Origin: Escherichia coli
GTDB lineage: Bacteria > Pseudomonadota > Gammaproteobacteria > Enterobacterales > Enterobacteriaceae
Reading direction: 5' to 3' (one strand)
Assembly: GCF_044324875.1 (NCBI RefSeq)
Contig: NZ_CP172185.1
DNA: 64,000 nt
The translations under genes were made by a program, and so were the position numbers. Below are positions 38,269-60,608 of this stretch, in pieces. The notes beneath the pieces were generated by a model. It did no database searches. It was not told the DNA's origin and saw only the letters and a program-made list of their open reading frames with translations. Positions within the stretch are counted from its first letter, which is position 1. Each line of letters begins with the position of its first letter.

Positions 38269-39558
38269 ATGTCGGATGACAAATTTGATGCCATTGTGGT
38301 CGGTGCGGGCGTTGCTGGTAGCGTTGCCGCACTGGTCATGGCGCGAGCCGGGCTGGATGTCCTGGTGATAGAACGCGGCGACAGTGCCGGATGTAAAAAC
38401 ATGACCGGCGGGCGTCTTTATGCCCACACACTTGAAGCGATTATTCCAGGCTTTGCAGCATCAGCGCCGGTAGAACGCAAGGTCACACGCGAGAAAATCT
38501 CCTTCTTAACCGAAGAGAGTGCCGTTACCCTCGATTTTCACCGCGAGCAACCAGATGTTCCGCAACACGCGTCTTATACCGTATTGCGTAATCGTCTGGA
38601 CCCGTGGTTGATGGATCAAGCCGAACAGGCTGGCGCGCAGTTTATCCCGGGCGTTCGTGTCGATGCGCTGGTTCGTGAAGGAAACAAGGTCACTGGCGTG
38701 CAGGCCGGGGATGATATTCTCGAAGCGAATGTGGTGATTCTGGCTGATGGCGTTAACTCGATGCTTGGCCGCTCGCTGGGAATGGTTCCCGCTTCCGATC
38801 CGCATCATTACGCTGTTGGTGTTAAAGAGGTTATTGGCCTCACACCAGAACAGATCAACGATCGCTTTAATGTTACGGGCGAGGAAGGTGCCGCCTGGCT
38901 GTTTGCCGGTTCCCCTTCGGACGGCCTGATGGGTGGCGGATTCCTCTATACCAACAATGATTCCGTATCGTTGGGGCTGGTTTGTGGATTGGGTGATATC
39001 GCCCATGCGCAAAAAAGTGTGCCGCAAATGCTGGAAGATTTTAAACAACACCCCGCCATTCGCCCGCTGATTAGCGGCGGCAAACTGCTTGAATACTCCG
39101 CGCATATGGTACCGGAAGGCGGTCTGGCGATGGTGCCGCAGCTGGTTAACGATGGCGTGATTATCGTTGGTGACGCCGCAGGCTTCTGCCTGAATTTGGG
39201 TTTTACGGTCCGCGGCATGGATTTAGCCATTGCATCGGCTCAGGCTGCCGCCACAACGGTGATCGCCGCCAAAGAACGCGCGGATTTCTCCGCCAGCAGT
39301 CTTGCGCAATACAAACGTGAGCTGGAACAAAGCTGCGTCATGCGTGATATGCAGCATTTTCGCAAGATCCCGGCGCTGATGGAAAATCCGCGCCTGTTTA
39401 GTCAGTATCCGCGCATGGTCGCCGACATCATGAACGATATGTTCACCATTGACGGCAAACCAAACCAGCCGGTACGCAAAATGATCATGGGACACGCGAA
39501 GAAAATTGGGCTGATCAACTTGCTGAAAGATGGCATTAAGGGAGCAACCGCGCTATGA
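38269..39558 (+). CDS. ydiS: ETF-quinone oxidoreductase-like flavoprotein (FixC-like)
   Basis: N-terminal AIVVGAGVAGS FAD motif; 429 aa. Confidence 0.85.
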   Translation: MSDDKFDAIVVGAGVAGSVAALVMARAGLDVLVIERGDSAGCKNMTGGRLYAHTLEAIIPGFAASAPVERKVTREKISFLTEESAVTLDFHREQPDVPQHASYTVLRNRLDPWLMDQAEQAGAQFIPGVRVDALVREGNKVTGVQAGDDILEANVVILADGVNSMLGRSLGMVPASDPHHYAVGVKEVIGLTPEQINDRFNVTGEEGAAWLFAGSPSDGLMGGGFLYTNNDSVSLGLVCGLGDIAHAQKSVPQMLEDFKQHPAIRPLISGGKLLEYSAHMVPEGGLAMVPQLVNDGVIIVGDAAGFCLNLGFTVRGMDLAIASAQAAATTVIAAKERADFSASSLAQYKRELEQSCVMRDMQHFRKIPALMENPRLFSQYPRMVADIMNDMFTIDGKPNQPVRKMIMGHAKKIGLINLLKDGIKGATAL

Positions 39559-52214: not shown

Positions 52215-52610
52215 TCATTCGTCCCCTTCTTTCTCTTTGTTCTGTTGAACGCTAATTGCGACACACGTAGCAATCAAATCTTTACATTTCTCCATATCTT
52301 CTGTCTTGCGCAACTTGATGCTTGCCACCGATTGTGGATTATCCGCTGTGGCACAATGCATTGTTATTTCAATGTCGTTTCGATGAAAGAGTCCCATAAT
52401 AGCTTTTGCAACCTCCGTCCCTTTTTCCGCGATATCAAAGATCAAAGCAAGTTTATACAAAATATCACCAGAAAAACACTCAACCCTGCTAAGACCAACA
52501 TCACATAATGAAAAATATTGCTCAACGTCCCCCTGGAGTTCGGGAGCACACACAATATCTATTTTTCCGTACTGGCCTGAATAAAAGTCACTATTAACTG
52601 TTTTTTTCAC
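52215..52610 (-). CDS. hypothetical protein coupled to the 3' end of int (unknown function)
   Basis: GTG at 52610 preceded by a perfect AAGGAGG SD; start overlaps the int stop by 17 nt (track ORF begins at an upstream TTG, 52631). Visibly AT-rich relative to flanks. Confidence 0.6.
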   Translation of the reverse strand: MKKTVNSDFYSGQYGKIDIVCAPELQGDVEQYFSLCDVGLSRVECFSGDILYKLALIFDIAEKGTEVAKAIMGLFHRNDIEITMHCATADNPQSVASIKLRKTEDMEKCKDLIATCVAISVQQNKEKEGDE

Positions 52611-53595
52611 AACATCCTCCTTCTTCAGCAATTGGATTAAACCTCACCGCATCCTGCAAATAATCCGGTGCAAGATGGGCATAAATCATCGTTGTCTGAA
52701 TCTTTGCGTGCCCCAGAATTTTCTGGAGCGTCAGAATATTGCCGCCGTTCATCATGAAATGACTGGCGAAAGTGTGGCGCAGCGCGTGAACGGCCTGCCC
52801 GTCAGGAATGGAAGGGGCAACCGCTTTTATCGAATCGCGCACCAGTGAATAATCCAGCGCCGGAAATACCAGCTTTCCGCCCCGTTTTTTAATTTTGTCA
52901 AACAGGCTTTCAGAAATTGGAACAGTCCGGTTTTTACTGTTTTTGGTTCTGGAAAATGTGATCCGGGAATGCAGAACGCGGCGCTGTTCAAGTGCCACCA
53001 CCTCACCCCATCGCGCCCCGGTAGATAAAAGAATTTCAGTAGCTAGCCGTTCGTCGGGATGCTCTACCAGAACGTCAAGCAGCTGGAGGCACTCCTGCCT
53101 GTTCAGATACCCCATTTCGCGCTCGCTGACCTTCATCCCTTTCAGTCCGCTAACAGGGTTATCATTCTGGAAGTGACCGGATGAGATGAGTGCGGAAAAC
53201 ATCGCGCTAAGCGCACCAACCTCGCGGTTTATGGTACTTGGCTGAATCCCCTCCTCCGCTCTTGCCACGCGTAATTCCGTTAACGTGGTGGCGTTGACGT
53301 TGTTAACACGCGGATCCCCCATCGCTTCACACACGCGCTGTAATTTGAGGCGTGTGTTCCACCCCGATTTCATCAGTTGCCCGTGAAACTTCCACCATAA
53401 TTCGATAAGTTCGGACAACGAACGGCGATCGGTCGGCGCACTGTTCCATGCGTTATTTTGGTGTTGAGCTAAAACCCAGCGTTCGAACTGGATAGCCTCC
53501 GACTTTGTTTTGAACTTTTTACGAATGCGTTTACCTTTGCGCCCATCAGGACGCATATCAACCATGTAGCCACCAGGGATTGATTTTATGCTCAT
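52594..53595 (-). CDS. int: tyrosine-type site-specific integrase (P2-like)
   Basis: C-terminal HALRHTFASHF...LGHAKIQTTMIYAHL catalytic region; start set at MSIKSIPGGY. Confidence 0.9.
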   Translation of the reverse strand: MSIKSIPGGYMVDMRPDGRKGKRIRKKFKTKSEAIQFERWVLAQHQNNAWNSAPTDRRSLSELIELWWKFHGQLMKSGWNTRLKLQRVCEAMGDPRVNNVNATTLTELRVARAEEGIQPSTINREVGALSAMFSALISSGHFQNDNPVSGLKGMKVSEREMGYLNRQECLQLLDVLVEHPDERLATEILLSTGARWGEVVALEQRRVLHSRITFSRTKNSKNRTVPISESLFDKIKKRGGKLVFPALDYSLVRDSIKAVAPSIPDGQAVHALRHTFASHFMMNGGNILTLQKILGHAKIQTTMIYAHLAPDYLQDAVRFNPIAEEGGCCEKNS

Positions 53596-53644
53596 TGGCA
53601 TACCCCCAGCGTCACAAGCCCACCGTGCCCCCAGCGTTCCATAA

Positions 53645-53953
53645 TCAGCCGTGCAGTGTGCCAGTCTTGCGGACTTTTTGAGAAGGTGATGTGCTTTCTG
53701 GCCCATCAGGGGAGAGAGTCGGGCTGATCTGCCCAGCAGCCTCGTTTGTTTTTCCCGTCATGAGCCAATTCATGTACTTAAAAAAACGAGGATGATTAAC
53801 AATCTTGACGAGAGCTTCGCCGCCGACATTCTCAATCCGACCTGTCTCATAACGGCGTAGAGTACCGATAGGTACATCAATCAGTTCACAAAACTCTTCA
53901 CGCGTTAACCCTTCCGACTCACGAATTACTCTGATTTTTTCACCAATAAACAT
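53645..53953 (-). CDS. P2 C-type immunity repressor
   Basis: 102-aa HTH protein immediately upstream of and co-oriented with int, divergent from the early operon. Confidence 0.7.
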   Translation of the reverse strand: MFIGEKIRVIRESEGLTREEFCELIDVPIGTLRRYETGRIENVGGEALVKIVNHPRFFKYMNWLMTGKTNEAAGQISPTLSPDGPESTSPSQKVRKTGTLHG

Positions 53954-55598: not shown

Positions 55599-55807
55599 CC
55601 AGCAAATACACCACCAACGCACGCAAGCCAGGCAAGGAGGCACGTCATCACATTGCCGTTCTGCGCAATCTCATCATGTGCGAAATCGACGACTTTGTGG
55701 CGGGACTGGGCCAGCCGGGCGAGCCAGCAACACCGGGCGAAATACACAAAGAACTACGCCGCCGCATAGAAAGCGCGGTGGATTACGTCATGAACCCGAA
55801 CGACTGA
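55595..55807 (+). CDS. hypothetical early protein
   Basis: 70-aa ORF, ATGA overlap with previous gene. Confidence 0.5.
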   Translation: MTSKYTTNARKPGKEARHHIAVLRNLIMCEIDDFVAGLGQPGEPATPGEIHKELRRRIESAVDYVMNPND

Positions 55808-55847
55808 CCAGAACGCGAGCGCGCGCCGGATGACGCACGCATAACGC

Positions 55848-56333
55848 TTAGCGGGAAGCGCCAACCGTAAGGCTGGCAATGATTTTTTCGGAGAGTGAGA
55901 GAGATTCGCGATGATTAAGACCAAGAGCAGCACAAGCTTTATTGCGCGCCGGGTTGTCCATGCATTCAAGCACCGGAGAGTCCTGCTTCTCAATTTCCAC
56001 CAGTCGCGCCAGCAACACCTCCGTGCTGAGACCGTCGCTTTCAGTAATCAGGACGTTATAGCGATGAGCCTGTTCTTTTGCAGCCTGAGCGCGTCGCCCA
56101 AATTTCCAGGCGATATTGCAGCCACTAAGCACAGCCACGATACCACCCAGCAACCAACTGAAATTGCTGTCTGCAAACACAGTAGCCCCAGACGTAAGGA
56201 TGACAGCATTAATCACCGTATCCATACGGCGGTTAAACACCTCCGAAATATGTTCAAGCCAGTAACTGTTCCAGAGACGAAACATGACCTCGTGTCGCCG
56301 TTCGGCATGATTTTCAGTTGGTTGTCTGTTCAT
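55848..56333 (-). CDS. 2-TM hairpin membrane protein encoded antisense to the early operon
   Basis: 161-aa ORF with AGGAGGG SD 10 nt upstream of the ATG; two adjacent hydrophobic helices (TVINAVILTSGATVFA / WLLGGIVAVLSGCNIAW) flanked by charged helices. Confidence 0.6.
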   Translation of the reverse strand: MNRQPTENHAERRHEVMFRLWNSYWLEHISEVFNRRMDTVINAVILTSGATVFADSNFSWLLGGIVAVLSGCNIAWKFGRRAQAAKEQAHRYNVLITESDGLSTEVLLARLVEIEKQDSPVLECMDNPARNKACAALGLNHRESLSLSEKIIASLTVGASR

Positions 56334-56576
56334 TGCGGTTTAACCCTCCTCATCATCTCGCCCCTGCCCTTTTTCAGGCGCGGGAGCCGGTTGCCGTGGC
56401 ACATGAAATTTATCGCTATCAGACATTTATTTTTTCCCGTGTGTTGTTGAACAAAGTGCCCGCACAGTTTTGACGGAACGGCGGGCGCTTCAAGCGTAAC
56501 ACACCCTTCTTTTCCGGTTGAAGGCGAAAAAAACCGGACAGCTACCCGACACAAACCAGACCAGCGGAGAACTGCC

Positions 56577-57131
56577 ATGTACGCACTTAAACCTATGGGG
56601 ATACCAGGCAAAGCCCCGGCGCATGTGAAAGCCTGGACACAGCAGGAAGATGATTTGCTGATCACCCTGTACCCGCAGCACACAGCACGAGATATCGCCG
56701 GGCGTCTGGGGCGCAGCCACGAAGGCGTGAAGAGCCGCATTTGTCGTCTGCGTGAACAGGGCAGGATTGGCATCAAGCAGCAAAGACTAAGCGATGAGAT
56801 GATCGCCACGCTCATCAGGAACCGCCACACCAGGTCCCTCAAGGAACTGGCACACATGGCGAAAGTTTCGACACGCACGGTAACCAACCGATTGAGGGCG
56901 CTGGGCTACAGCCTGATCAAATGCGGGGATCTGCATAAAAACACCGTCTACAGCGACCGCATCGTTGAGATTATCAGACAGTTACACGACGAGCAGGGCC
57001 TGACGTTCAGGGAAATCGCACAGCGCCTTAGCCACGAACTACAGCCGAACCCTACCCCGACACTGGCTCAACGTCTCTACTGGCGGTGCACAGCATCCGA
57101 CGCCGTATTCCGTGAACTGTTACCAGATTGA
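56577..57131 (+). CDS. DNA-binding protein with three tandem HTH (Myb/SANT-like) repeats
   Basis: 184-aa ORF with ggaga RBS; three ~45-aa repeats each containing an HTH-like segment. Confidence 0.55.
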   Translation: MYALKPMGIPGKAPAHVKAWTQQEDDLLITLYPQHTARDIAGRLGRSHEGVKSRICRLREQGRIGIKQQRLSDEMIATLIRNRHTRSLKELAHMAKVSTRTVTNRLRALGYSLIKCGDLHKNTVYSDRIVEIIRQLHDEQGLTFREIAQRLSHELQPNPTPTLAQRLYWRCTASDAVFRELLPD

Positions 57132-57454
57132 GCAATCACCATGTACACACAAAAAAACCGCTTGCAACAACAAACCGGAACAGGGTACGCTTCCCCCGCA
57201 CCTCATAAAGCGGGTGCCGGGTTTCGCAGCCTGCTGACTAGCAAAGCGCACAACCGCGCCAGCGGTTTTTTTGTGCGTACTGTATTGCCACGTCTTTTTC
57301 GCATCAGAATTATGGTGGGGCGTACGGGGCCGACTTCGGTCGGGCCGGTTTCTTCGTTTGCCGGTGTTGAGAACCCCGTACGTCTCGCCACCCCGAGATT
57401 CTCAACTCTGGTTGGTGAGTATCCAAAAACTCACAAACGAAGAGGCCAAACACC

Positions 57455-57673
57455 ATGGCAAACCGCAAACAGCGCCGCGCTATCGCTGCGCAGCGTCACA
57501 TCCAGACCGAAATCAACCGCAGACTCTTCCGCGCCCACAACATCGCGCGAATCATGCACGCCAACATGCTGCATGAACGCAGTAACGCGTTATCAAACCT
57601 CTATTCCGCTTCCGTTTTCAGCTATCTGGCGGACGACCTGCGCGAGCTGCAAGACCTCATTAACCAGCACTGA
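57455..57673 (+). CDS. hypothetical protein
   Basis: 72-aa ORF with aagagg RBS. Confidence 0.5.
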   Translation: MANRKQRRAIAAQRHIQTEINRRLFRAHNIARIMHANMLHERSNALSNLYSASVFSYLADDLRELQDLINQH

Positions 57674-58117: not shown

Positions 58118-60292
58118 ATGGAGTTCGTCAGAGACTGGCAAAAACCGCGCCCCGCTATCGGGCGCGAAGGCTTACCCGTACCTGAAACCGCACTGGATAC
58201 CATCCTGAAGTGTTACCGCGCGGACGAAGAGCGCGCCCTGAACGCTGAAGAGCAGGGTCATCCGCTTGCGGGCACAACCATCGGTAACGCGATCGACAAG
58301 TGGGAAGGCGCACAGGAGCGCCAGGAAGAGGCCATCACGCTCACACAGGAAGCGAAGAGACGCCCACCCACCCTCATTGAGGAAACCCTCAAAGAGCTGG
58401 ACACCCTGCCAAAGTGGTTGAGGCTGCCACTGATTAAGTACCTGAACTTCTTAAGGCGCAAACAGGAGGACGAACAGCAGAAAGGCAAGCGCGGCAAGGA
58501 CACCCGCAAATATGAGCGCTTCCTGAAAAACGGCATCCCCGCACGTCTTCGCCGTATTCGTGAGATTAACGCTCGCTTTGCACCGTTAAGTTTTCAGGCC
58601 GCTGCCATGCGCGAGAGTCTGGAAGAGTTAATCACACTGCCGAACCTGAGCCGTGAACGCATCCAGAAAATAGCCGTACTGCTTGCCAGCGCCGTTAAAA
58701 TGCATCTTGCCGACGCAATGGACAAGGCCCGCGAAATAACAGGGAACGACAAAGACGACAACCTGAACAACTGGCTGATTGCCTACCAGTATATTGGTCG
58801 CCGTGTCCTGAAGCTGGGGATCACCCCACCATACTGGAGCGCCCTTGAACTCCGTCCCGACCGCAGAAGCCCCCCGGACCTGACACTGGTACCGGGCGCT
58901 GTTTTGCGCCTGAACGACGCCGAATGGTGGAATAAAAAACTTCGCCAGATGCACGACGTCTGGCGTGAGGAACTTTTACGTGCAGCGGGCCTTGTATCCC
59001 GCCAGACCTCCATTTATGTGAGCCGGGAAGCGCTGGCAGACTTCCGCGAGAAACAGGCCCGTACCCGCGATTTTCTCAAAGCGCACGACGTGGAGAACGA
59101 AGACGGCGAACGCATCAGCCTGGAAGATATCTACTACGCCAGTACATCCAACCCGCATAACCGCCGCAACGAGATGATGGCGTGCGTCAAGGGAATGGAG
59201 CTTATCGCACAGGAACGTGGCGACGTGGCCTTCTTCGTCACGGTCACAGCCCCGTCTCGTTTTCACAGCGTCACCGACGCCGGTACCCTTAACCCGAAAT
59301 ACAAAGGCACAACAGTAAAAGACGCCAGCGACTATCTGGTTTATAACTTCTTCGCCTCCGCCCGCAAACTCATCAAAAAAGAGAAGCGGGGCTGGTACGG
59401 CATTCGCACCGTGGAGCCTCACCACGACGGCACGCCCCACTGGCACATGCTGGTATTCACAAGCCCCGAGAACGAAGCGCGCATCACGGAAATCATGTGC
59501 AATGCCGCCATCCGTGAAGACCGTGCAGAGCTGGGCGACGACATTACCCCGCGCTTCAAGTGCGAGAAGATAGACCCCGAAAAAGGTACGCCAACCAGCT
59601 ACATCGCCACCTACATCGGCAAAGGCATTGACGCCGCCGCATTCGGCGACACGGATCCCAAAACAGGCAAACCGCCCGTTGACCACGAAAGCGGAAAACC
59701 TATGGCGGACACCGTGGAAAACGCCGTCGCCTGGGCACGCCTGCATCGCATTCGCCAGTTCCAGTTCTTTGGCCTTCCCTCACGTCAGGTGTGGCGCGAG
59801 TTCCGCCGCCTTGCCGGACAAATGGCACGCAACCCGAAGGGGCCGCAGGCACTGACCAACCCCAAAGCCGACGCCCTCCTTGTTGCAGCCGATACGGGGT
59901 GTTTTGCCAGCTACATCATGCATCAGGGCGGTGTGCTCATTCCCCGCAGTGAATATCTGGCCCGCACGGCCTACGTCACCGCAGAAGAGCCGAACAACTA
60001 CGGCGAGTTCCCCGACCGTATTTACGGTGTACGGATGCCGGAACTGGGCGATGAGTTCACGTTATGTACCCACCCGGAAGAGTGGAAAATCGTCAGAAAG
60101 GAACCGGAACCAGACAACCGCACGGGCGAGGGTTTTGACCTTCAGGGCGACCCCGTCGCCCCTTGGACTCGTGGCAATAACTGTCACCCTGACGAAAAAA
60201 ACAACCAACAACAGCACACAAACAGAACAGTCAGAGTGGGCAAAACTGCCCCCCTTACCCCCATCGTCGGACGGTTTTGTGAGCTGGTTTAA
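58118..60292 (+). CDS. replication initiation endonuclease (P2 gpA / 186 A family, rolling-circle)
   Basis: 724-aa ORF with caggagg RBS; HDGTPHWHMLVF metal-binding motif and YIATYIGKG active-site tyrosine region. Confidence 0.85.
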   Translation: MEFVRDWQKPRPAIGREGLPVPETALDTILKCYRADEERALNAEEQGHPLAGTTIGNAIDKWEGAQERQEEAITLTQEAKRRPPTLIEETLKELDTLPKWLRLPLIKYLNFLRRKQEDEQQKGKRGKDTRKYERFLKNGIPARLRRIREINARFAPLSFQAAAMRESLEELITLPNLSRERIQKIAVLLASAVKMHLADAMDKAREITGNDKDDNLNNWLIAYQYIGRRVLKLGITPPYWSALELRPDRRSPPDLTLVPGAVLRLNDAEWWNKKLRQMHDVWREELLRAAGLVSRQTSIYVSREALADFREKQARTRDFLKAHDVENEDGERISLEDIYYASTSNPHNRRNEMMACVKGMELIAQERGDVAFFVTVTAPSRFHSVTDAGTLNPKYKGTTVKDASDYLVYNFFASARKLIKKEKRGWYGIRTVEPHHDGTPHWHMLVFTSPENEARITEIMCNAAIREDRAELGDDITPRFKCEKIDPEKGTPTSYIATYIGKGIDAAAFGDTDPKTGKPPVDHESGKPMADTVENAVAWARLHRIRQFQFFGLPSRQVWREFRRLAGQMARNPKGPQALTNPKADALLVAADTGCFASYIMHQGGVLIPRSEYLARTAYVTAEEPNNYGEFPDRIYGVRMPELGDEFTLCTHPEEWKIVRKEPEPDNRTGEGFDLQGDPVAPWTRGNNCHPDEKNNQQQHTNRTVRVGKTAPLTPIVGRFCELV

Positions 60293-60608
60293 GTCGCTTA
60301 AGAGGCCGGACAGGAAAAAACTACAAAGATTGCTCAAAAAACGCACCGAAGAGAGTCGCCAGAACGCCAGCGGCGGCACCGACACACCCACCGACACCAT
60401 TAACCTGGGCGTTGTGCTGCCGGAACTGCCGGAAATCGTGCAAGTCCGCCGCGATCTGGAAGCGCTGGGCGCGGACTTCCCCGAAGCAATGGCCCATTCC
60501 GTCTTTATGGGTGCCCGCGTTCGTCTGGGTGACGGTCGCACCGTTCACCGCGACGAGCAGACCGGGCGCATCACCGTCACCAGTCTGCAACCGGAGGCGA
60601 AACCATGA
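60279..60608 (+). CDS. possible small protein coupled to the A stop (start uncertain)
   Basis: In-frame GTG at 60279 overlapping the A stop; C-terminal part looks coding and ends in an ATGA overlap with the next gene. The upstream part of track ORF 59880..60608 lies inside A in another frame. Confidence 0.35.
   Translation: MSWFKSLKRPDRKKLQRLLKKRTEESRQNASGGTDTPTDTINLGVVLPELPEIVQVRRDLEALGADFPEAMAHSVFMGARVRLGDGRTVHRDEQTGRITVTSLQPEAKP

Follow-up and report, generated by a model that had tools for sequence, protein, structure and literature searches.

Known phage morons and lysogenic exclusion genes include lambda rexAB, P22 sieB and HK97 gp15. SLATT proteins are predicted pore-forming effectors of the CBASS, RADAR, DRT3, UG17 and AbiA systems (PMC9226505). 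Here we describe a cassette of about 700 bp in a P2-like prophage of Escherichia coli, located in a 64,000-nucleotide (nt) stretch of contig NZ_CP172185.1 (assembly GCF_044324875.1) that was analysed as a whole and is called the window below. The cassette pairs a 28-codon open reading frame (ORF), here the micro-ORF, with the gene of a 161-amino-acid (aa) protein that has two predicted transmembrane (TM) segments. From its pattern of conservation we judge with high confidence that the micro-ORF is a real micro-protein gene whose amino-acid sequence is under purifying selection. On a slight balance of probability we further favour the fuller explanation in which this micro-protein is co-translated with, and probably binds, a SLATT-like protein within a prophage moron. 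The core features are as follows, with the Shine-Dalgarno sequence abbreviated as SD.

56340..56426, minus strand: micro-protein gene of 28 codons plus TAA, MSDSDKFHVPRQPAPAPEKGQGRDDEEG, identified by reading of the ORF, its conservation in 27 loci and the ratio of non-synonymous to synonymous differences per site (pN/pS).
56345..56351, minus strand: SD GAGGAGG of the 161-aa gene, inside micro-ORF codons 26-28.
56435..56438, minus strand: weak SD GGGA of the micro-ORF itself, 8 nt 5' of its ATG.
55848..56333, minus strand: gene of the 161-aa two-TM protein, phrog_6315, remotely SLATT-like by profile, fold and AlphaFold2 (AF2) model.

Like the rexAB, sieB and HK97 gp15 loci, the cassette is an autonomous promoter-gene unit between phage genes that faces the lytic operon, is patchily distributed and has a predicted inner-membrane product. 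No sequence or fold relation to these genes was found, however, and the bicistron of peptide and SLATT-like protein, the extended -10 element and the leader with its 5' hairpin are particular to the cassette. As in SLATT proteins, the 161-aa partner is small and predicted to be all-helical, with a two-TM hairpin between cytoplasmic helices; its family gives recurrent weak matches to SLATT_4 and SLATT_1 and resides on mobile elements, sometimes beside defence genes. Among the homologous loci, which carry L numbers here, two have defence-island-like contexts (L051 beside a PIN gene, L052 beside Nmad2 and a DpnII-type enzyme). Unlike described SLATT systems, the cassette gives matches below thresholds and is adjoined by no nucleotide-signal generator and no SMODS, SLOG, SAVED or reverse transcriptase partner; its neighbours are ordinary phage early, lysis and immunity genes, and in the examined contexts the sole constant neighbour of the membrane gene is the micro-ORF, which encodes a proline-rich peptide of 26-56 aa. 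With type II toxin-antitoxin and two-gene abortive-infection modules the cassette shares a small, disordered and acidic first product, tight coupling, a conserved bicistronic order, a prophage location, an orientation for expression in the lysogen and an apparent joint decay in one lineage. Unlike in such modules, the peptide has neither a DNA-binding domain nor a recognised antitoxin family and is far shorter than typical antitoxins, and the membrane protein has a sister subfamily that lacks the peptide. Neither the searchable literature nor Pfam, NCBIfam, PADLOC and the PHROG annotations yielded a description of the pair, which is best regarded as a SLATT-type effector with an unusual micro-protein partner.

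The micro-ORF starts with the ATG at 56426 and stops with the TAA at 56342..56340, and ACCGCA (56339..56334) separates this stop from the ATG of the 161-aa gene at 56333, so the preliminary description of a 28-codon minus-strand ORF ending 6 nt before that gene is borne out. It had also placed the SD of the 161-aa gene in the last codons of the micro-ORF, and this holds: the end GAT GAG GAG GGT contains GAGGAGG (56351..56345), the sole SD-like sequence before the gene. A point absent from that description is that the two ORFs are in frame in the window (TAA ACC GCA ATG). Taken as a single sequence, the micro-ORF is only marginally beyond chance, as an ATG-initiated ORF of 28 codons or more, with its end no more than 10 nt from the gene start, arose in 259 of 5000 dinucleotide shuffles (about 5%) of the 243-nt intergenic region. 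Its reality follows from conservation across loci, not from single-sequence odds.

Homologous loci were found via homologues of the 161-aa protein, and the upstream DNA was then read for small ORFs. In 27 loci a small ORF of 26-56 aa ends 3-20 nt 5' of the membrane gene, and each has its own SD 6-10 nt upstream, mostly AAGGAG or GGAGGA where the window has GGGA. The most distant of these loci (L050-L052) encode membrane proteins only 21-28% identical to that of the window. The peptides share the core [F/Y]-H-x-[V/L/I]-[H/R/P]-x-P-x-P, which in the window is FHVPRQPAP at residues 7-15. Examples are MSDTDKFHVPRKPAPSPEKGKGGEEDED; ...DTDDFHVLHKPAPPEEKDDEE in Pectobacterium-type loci and Yersinia phage vB_YenM_42.18; MSEDRKDYHRIHRPAPAEQ...; MLNTASSAEQDTDNFHVPPRPAPKPTKKGGCQ; MERCVDKYEERHVPLRQKPPVPPKPPKEN; and MSDKPNPPPSDGIRANVPPRPTPTGVLPPGGGTKK. 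In the AVS0542 prophage of E. coli (80% identical), the peptide MSDSDKFHVPRQPAPAPEKGQGWDDEED matches that of the window at 26 of 28 residues; the two micro-ORFs differ by eight synonymous and two non-synonymous changes and by TAG for TAA, with the same 6-nt gap. Peptide identity to the window copies is 74-78%, against 55-63% for the membrane protein; the peptide is conserved at least as strongly as its partner. Conservation of the reading frame across homologous loci, the check proposed in the preliminary description, thus came out in favour of a gene, with frame and motif kept in the 27 loci.

The carriers of the cassette include P2/186-like, Mu-like (L042, L045) and lambdoid (L043, L047) prophages. 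A profile search with the peptide retrieved ten database entries, seven of them peptides from the loci studied here (some N-terminally extended) and three close variants; the five entries with a source name are all called 'hypothetical' or 'uncharacterised'. A scan of genome contigs for homologous loci yielded two loci only. The peptides had no match in Pfam, NCBIfam (E-value (E) up to 10), PHROG or PADLOC (E up to 1), and when the rest of the window was scanned for the motif, the single match, at 38998, was unrelated and due to chance. RefSeq annotation lacks the micro-ORF in all E. coli copies inspected and lists the 161-aa gene as hypothetical; some public annotations label the micro-ORF product 'hypothetical protein'.

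Evidence for coding came from two groups of loci. In the first 19 codons of the micro-ORF, seven close loci have 4, 3 and 14 variable columns at codon positions 1, 2 and 3. Their Nei-Gojobori pN/pS, summed over pairs, is 0.11 in this frame, with synonymous differences near saturation (pS 0.62). A second, independent group (Pectobacterium-, Yersinia- and Serratia-type) again gave 0.11. Only one other frame had a low ratio (0.20-0.23), the antisense frame with shared wobble positions, which is not open. The locus also contains a long ORF on the opposite strand.

55911..56450, plus strand: 179-aa ORF overlapping the micro-ORF and the 161-aa gene, co-directional with the phage early operon.

The pN/pS in the frame of this ORF is 2.05 and 1.10, against 0.11 for the micro-ORF frame, and we therefore rule it out as a real gene; by its substitution pattern it is a shadow ORF, codon-aligned with the minus-strand genes. 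In Yersinia phage vB_YenM_42.18 (NC_070913.1, 2950-3615) it is the equivalent shadow ORF that is annotated, as gp08, and the micro-ORF and the SLATT-like gene are left unannotated.

The 161-aa product belongs to phrog_6315 (function not known) at 5.6e-51, and an exhaustive hidden Markov model search for its family returned 202 cluster representatives. It has two hydrophobic stretches, VINAVILTSGATVFA and WLLGGIVAVLSGCNIAW. AF2 predicts a hairpin of helices 7-53 and 59-101 with two membrane-spanning segments, followed by three short C-terminal helices, at a predicted local distance difference test score (pLDDT) of 79.5 with 22 sequences and 92-98 with 74. The modelled layout is that of SLATT proteins: a small protein with two adjacent TM helices flanked by cytoplasmic helices. 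In an NCBIfam scan of 79 family members, 38 matched SLATT_4 (best 8.6e-7) and 13 matched SLATT_1, all sub-threshold; one member matched Pfam SLATT_fungal at 0.005. Foldseek against the BFVD viral models placed SLATT-annotated proteins at the top (E 4.5e-3, probability about 1.0). The protein had no meaningful Pfam match, and fold searches against the PDB gave no informative match. As both the profile and the fold matches are weak, we call the protein SLATT-like and stop short of assigning it to SLATT. A possible link between a C-terminal G-I/L-P motif of the membrane protein and the presence of the peptide, weighed by eye, was dropped, as L050 and L051 have the peptide without the motif.

Upstream of the micro-ORF, comparison of the loci outlined a conserved transcription unit, and a terminator scan added a further element.

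56493..56501, minus strand: promoter-like extended -10 element TGTTACGCT (TGnTAnnnT), found by locus comparison.
56456..56488, minus strand: 5' leader hairpin GCGCCCGC-N17-GCGGGCAC, from sequence and alignment.
56514..56550, minus strand: hairpin(s) with a T-run directly 5' of the -10 element, from the terminator scan.

Of 23 loci, 22 contain TGnTAnnnT at 44-78 nt 5' of the micro-ORF ATG, whereas shuffled sequences show the pattern in 17% of cases. GTG.TA...T, with the critical bases of an extended -10 promoter, is invariant in the alignment, and transcription would start near 56485-56488. The -10 element is followed by the 5' hairpin, a CA-rich stretch, the SD and the micro-ORF. Sixteen loci retain the GCCC/GGGC stem of the leader hairpin, and three of its four predicted pairs show compensatory changes; in AVS0542 it is a perfect 8-bp stem with changed bases. 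The upstream element comprises a terminator-like hairpin (56550..56533) with T7 and an inverted repeat CCGGTT/AACCGG (56537..56514); comparable GC-rich hairpins followed by TTTTGTGGTA occur in most homologous loci, and the element is probably an insulator against upstream transcription. Rfam contained no family at the leader or upstream element of the cassette; its matches were C4 and isrK, farther upstream, and fragments of tmRNA, IsrM and Hrs13 in other places.

The CA-rich stretch 5' of the micro-ORF SD (56427-56455 in the window; 2790-2910 in L006) often reads ACCACAAGGAG, which resembles the CsrA-binding consensus ACA-GGA. RNAalifold also pairs TTGTG of the -10 region with CACAA before the SD; these pairs are mostly invariant and hence uninformative.

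The window holds a P2-like prophage. Its integrase gene (52594-53706) is followed by a repressor-like helix-turn-helix (HTH) gene and then by a rightward early operon, with the portal and terminase genes further on. The cassette region occurs in 10 of 5426 complete E. coli genomes, in nine of them near-identical and in one 80% identical. The natural lysogens CS5L and 23CRST011 show 100% identity across the cassette (about 55800-56560 in the window). The micro-ORF and the 161-aa gene are oriented against the phage early operon, and in all annotated contexts the pair runs opposite to its neighbours. The conserved promoter and leader, the antisense orientation and the patchy distribution together give the cassette the anatomy of a moron, with a promoter-like element of its own. 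Expression in the lysogen is likely, and during lytic growth transcription of the early operon would oppose it.

In every homologous locus the SD of the membrane gene lies inside the last micro-ORF codons or over its stop (e.g., TAAGGA), a position that fits termination-reinitiation coupling, and we consider translational coupling of the two ORFs likely. In the window clade the peptide ends in an acidic tail, DDEE(D/G), which simply results from translating the GA-rich SD; distant clades do not keep it and end in KPKE, QDKK or PKEN. RNAalifold on seven loci found only an invariant 5-bp hairpin within the 5' end of the ORF and no conserved structure at the junction that would mask the downstream start. 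The preliminary description had left the choice between a leader peptide, a coupling element and a chance ORF. The coupling anatomy stands, as it is conserved; a purely leader or coupling role leaves the selection on amino acids unexplained; and chance is excluded because frame and motif persist in 27 loci, including those whose partners are 21-28% identical, at a pN/pS of 0.11.

Four other explanations were weighed against that of a co-translated partner of the membrane protein. The micro-ORF might be no gene at all, either a chance ORF or the mirror of the 179-aa plus-strand ORF at 55911..56450 (gp08 in vB_YenM_42.18). The roughly 5% single-sequence chance level and the overlap of a long plus-strand ORF in the window, AVS0542 and the Yersinia phage speak for this, but the substitution ratios run the other way, the minus-strand 161-aa protein has a large and coherent family, and the micro-ORF and its own SD are kept at a saturated synonymous divergence (pS 0.62-0.68); we regard this explanation as effectively refuted. 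Stop-codon readthrough, which would occasionally produce a 191-aa fusion in which the micro-ORF forms an N-terminal extension of the 161-aa protein, draws on the in-frame 6-nt gap in the window and 12 other loci and on a stop codon that varies (TAA, TAG, TGA) while the frame is kept within the window clade. Over all loci, however, the gaps are 3, 5, 6, 7, 8, 9, 11, 12, 13 and 20 nt, with 5, 7, 8, 11 or 20 nt in other clades, and frame relations 0, 1 and 2 all occur while the motif is kept; moreover, all 161-aa homologues begin at the same Met, each with its own SD. Since the frame relation differs among clades, in-frame readthrough is ruled out, its probability being vanishingly small, and the in-frame stop in the window is incidental.

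A purely cis-acting role, in which translation of the micro-ORF delivers or pauses ribosomes and the peptide is constrained only in the ribosome tunnel, has more to commend it. The downstream SD sits in the micro-ORF end in every locus with short gaps, PP, PPP and PPG motifs pause ribosomes without EF-P, and about 10 of 27 peptides carry one of them. The arrangement also recalls SecM-secA, MifM-yidC2 and VemP-secDF2, where a short conserved ORF lies directly 5' of a membrane-related gene with the downstream ribosome-binding site at the ORF end. Unlike in those systems, the cassette has no conserved RNA structure over that site to be opened, the peptide carries no N-terminal membrane or secretion signal, and the motif does not lie at a fixed distance from the stop as in SecM-, MifM- and TnaC-type peptides: the conserved His is 20 residues from the stop in the window, 15 in L013, 14 in L018, 21 in L016, and more in L039, L040 and L052. 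This variable spacing, and the lack of consecutive prolines in the window clade, argue against arrest or an EF-P-dependent pause as a general explanation. Stalled at the stop, a ribosome would lie over the SD and ATG of the membrane gene and block the start instead of exposing it, and a pN/pS of 0.11 across the N-terminal 19 codons exceeds what pausing needs. We hold the purely cis-acting role to be improbable; we prefer a real micro-protein, co-translated with the membrane protein and probably acting on it. Alternatively, the selected peptide could have an independent target, such as a chaperone, the ribosome or a proline-rich-motif binder of the host or of an incoming phage, with the membrane gene merely co-expressed. 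A short proline-rich motif in a disordered acidic peptide is typical of groove-binding ligands, the L020-L034 subfamily of the membrane protein occurs without the peptide, and no co-variation between peptide and membrane protein was demonstrated. Yet the peptide was never met apart from the membrane gene, the profile search returned only the peptide types of these loci, and the adjacency holds over three phage types even at 21-28% partner identity; in addition, the AF2 model of the peptide fused to the membrane protein gives the motif a raised pLDDT, and both genes decay together in one lineage. We consider an independent target unlikely.

These last two points concern whether the peptide acts on the membrane protein. 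The AF2 model of a peptide-(GGGGS)6-membrane protein fusion drew on 22 paired and 52 unpaired sequences. Averaged over blocks of ten residues, its pLDDT is 58, 81 and 54 along the peptide, about 50 in the linker and 92-98 in the membrane protein. The block of high pLDDT, peptide residues 11-20 (RQPAPAPEKG), coincides with the conserved motif, which is suggestive only of its docking as an extended segment on the membrane protein. In L010-L012, an E. coli lineage, the micro-ORF (about 2880-2967 in L010) is pseudogenised by a frameshift between the ATG and KFH and by an in-frame TAG, and the membrane protein (P0017 type) deviates at many near-invariant residues; this shared decay fits a functional linkage but is anecdotal. 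All told, direct binding or regulation of the SLATT-like protein by the peptide has, in our estimate, an even chance.

The motif also bears a loose likeness to the aromatic-x-hydrophobic-P-R-x-P-x-P pattern of oncocin, pyrrhocoricin and apidaecin. This is a lead only: unlike those peptides, the micro-ORF product is acidic, intracellular and without Arg-rich character.

If the favoured explanation holds, the micro-ORF would be the first cistron of a two-gene operon within an autonomous moron cassette. This unit, inserted antisense in the early region of the P2-like prophage, would begin with the hairpin insulator and continue with the extended -10 promoter, the 5' hairpin and the SD, followed by the 28-aa peptide and the 161-aa SLATT-like two-TM protein. 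Ribosomes ending the peptide may re-initiate on the membrane gene, so that both products would be made together. The disordered, acidic, proline-rich peptide could then bind the cytoplasmic face of the membrane protein via its FHVPRxPxP motif and restrain a pore-former-like effector, as a labile antitoxin or as a gatekeeper. If the peptide were lost or titrated, as when another phage infects, the effector would be released and the infection aborted or excluded. Such antitoxin-like gating of a membrane effector for phage exclusion or abortive infection is the likeliest role, proposed tentatively.

Several points weigh against this explanation. The function is proposed from sequence and models. 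The pN/pS values are pairwise sums over related sequences and are not corrected for phylogeny, the SD of the micro-ORF in the window is weak (GGGA), and a generic sigma-70 promoter scan, which did not call the -10 element, found zero sites. The AF2 fusion was judged on pLDDT alone. All SLATT matches lie below cut-offs, the window protein itself scoring 12.5 bits with SLATT_4 (E 0.099) where 55 are required, and the defence profiles of PADLOC-DB v2.0.0 returned zero families for the 161-aa protein and for the peptide. Finally, in a sister subfamily (L020-L034, 15 loci, 33-39% identity) the gene has no peptide nearby. Thus the membrane protein can exist alone, which weakens the model of an obligatory antitoxin.

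In the L020-L034 loci the peptide motif was not found, and the gene (start at about 2962-2980 in L023 and L027) is driven by near-consensus sigma-70 promoters, TTGCGT-17-TATAAT/TAGAAT, beside the isrK/C4 region. The proteins of their first clade start with MSDKLPSD, which recalls the micro-ORF start MSD(S/T)DK; an old deletion fusion of micro-ORF and membrane gene is a possibility.

The neighbourhood of the cassette contains the following features.

56577-57131, plus strand: 184-aa multi-HTH protein, phrog_323 'D5-like transcriptional regulator', between the cassette and the isrK/C4 region.
57185-57395, plus strand: Rfam matches to the c4-a1b1 target, isrK and C4 antisense RNA.
57455-57673, plus strand: 72-aa 'derepression protein' gene, PF25738.
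58118-60292: replication endonuclease gene A, gpA-like, 724 aa against 829 aa in strain CS5L.

The 184-aa HTH gene is absent from the AVS0542 prophage and split into two ORFs in strain Ch1. The Rfam matches comprise the c4-a1b1 target (E 0.0045, below the gathering score), the Hfq-binding RNA isrK (4.7e-13) and C4 (2.3e-15); together with the derepression gene they look like a P1/P7 immI-like, antisense-RNA-controlled antirepressor module, divergent from the cassette. In gene A, one extra A near 60195 (A7 against A6) shifts the frame, and the rest continues in an ORF ending at 60608; this reflects either a defective prophage or a homopolymer sequencing error. The P2 hotspot between gene A and the portal gene (L001, 2993-4500) holds a RelE-type toxin, an HTH gene and DUF6516 in CS5L, and ParM and partition genes in AVS0542. 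These genes are typical variable cargo, unrelated to the cassette.

The micro-ORF thus belongs to a definable family of micro-proteins that have a clear motif, are strictly syntenic with a SLATT-like gene, share a conserved promoter and leader, and are present in at least three types of temperate phage. Micro-proteins are routinely missed in annotation, and one phage record shows a shadow ORF in place of both real genes. Even if the peptide does not control its partner, the annotation is corrected and a cassette of about 700 bp is in hand that can be cloned and directly tested. If it does, the pair would provide a simple, tractable model of a pore-former-like effector kept silent in the lysogen and a new candidate for a prophage-encoded exclusion system, and, should the gating be true, no smaller protein that regulates a SLATT-type effector would be known. 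More speculatively, the pair may represent an undescribed but widespread two-gene prophage immunity module in which the peptide gates the pore, as an antitoxin or as a bait removed by phage, and by which P2-like, Mu-like and lambdoid lysogens would abort or exclude superinfection.

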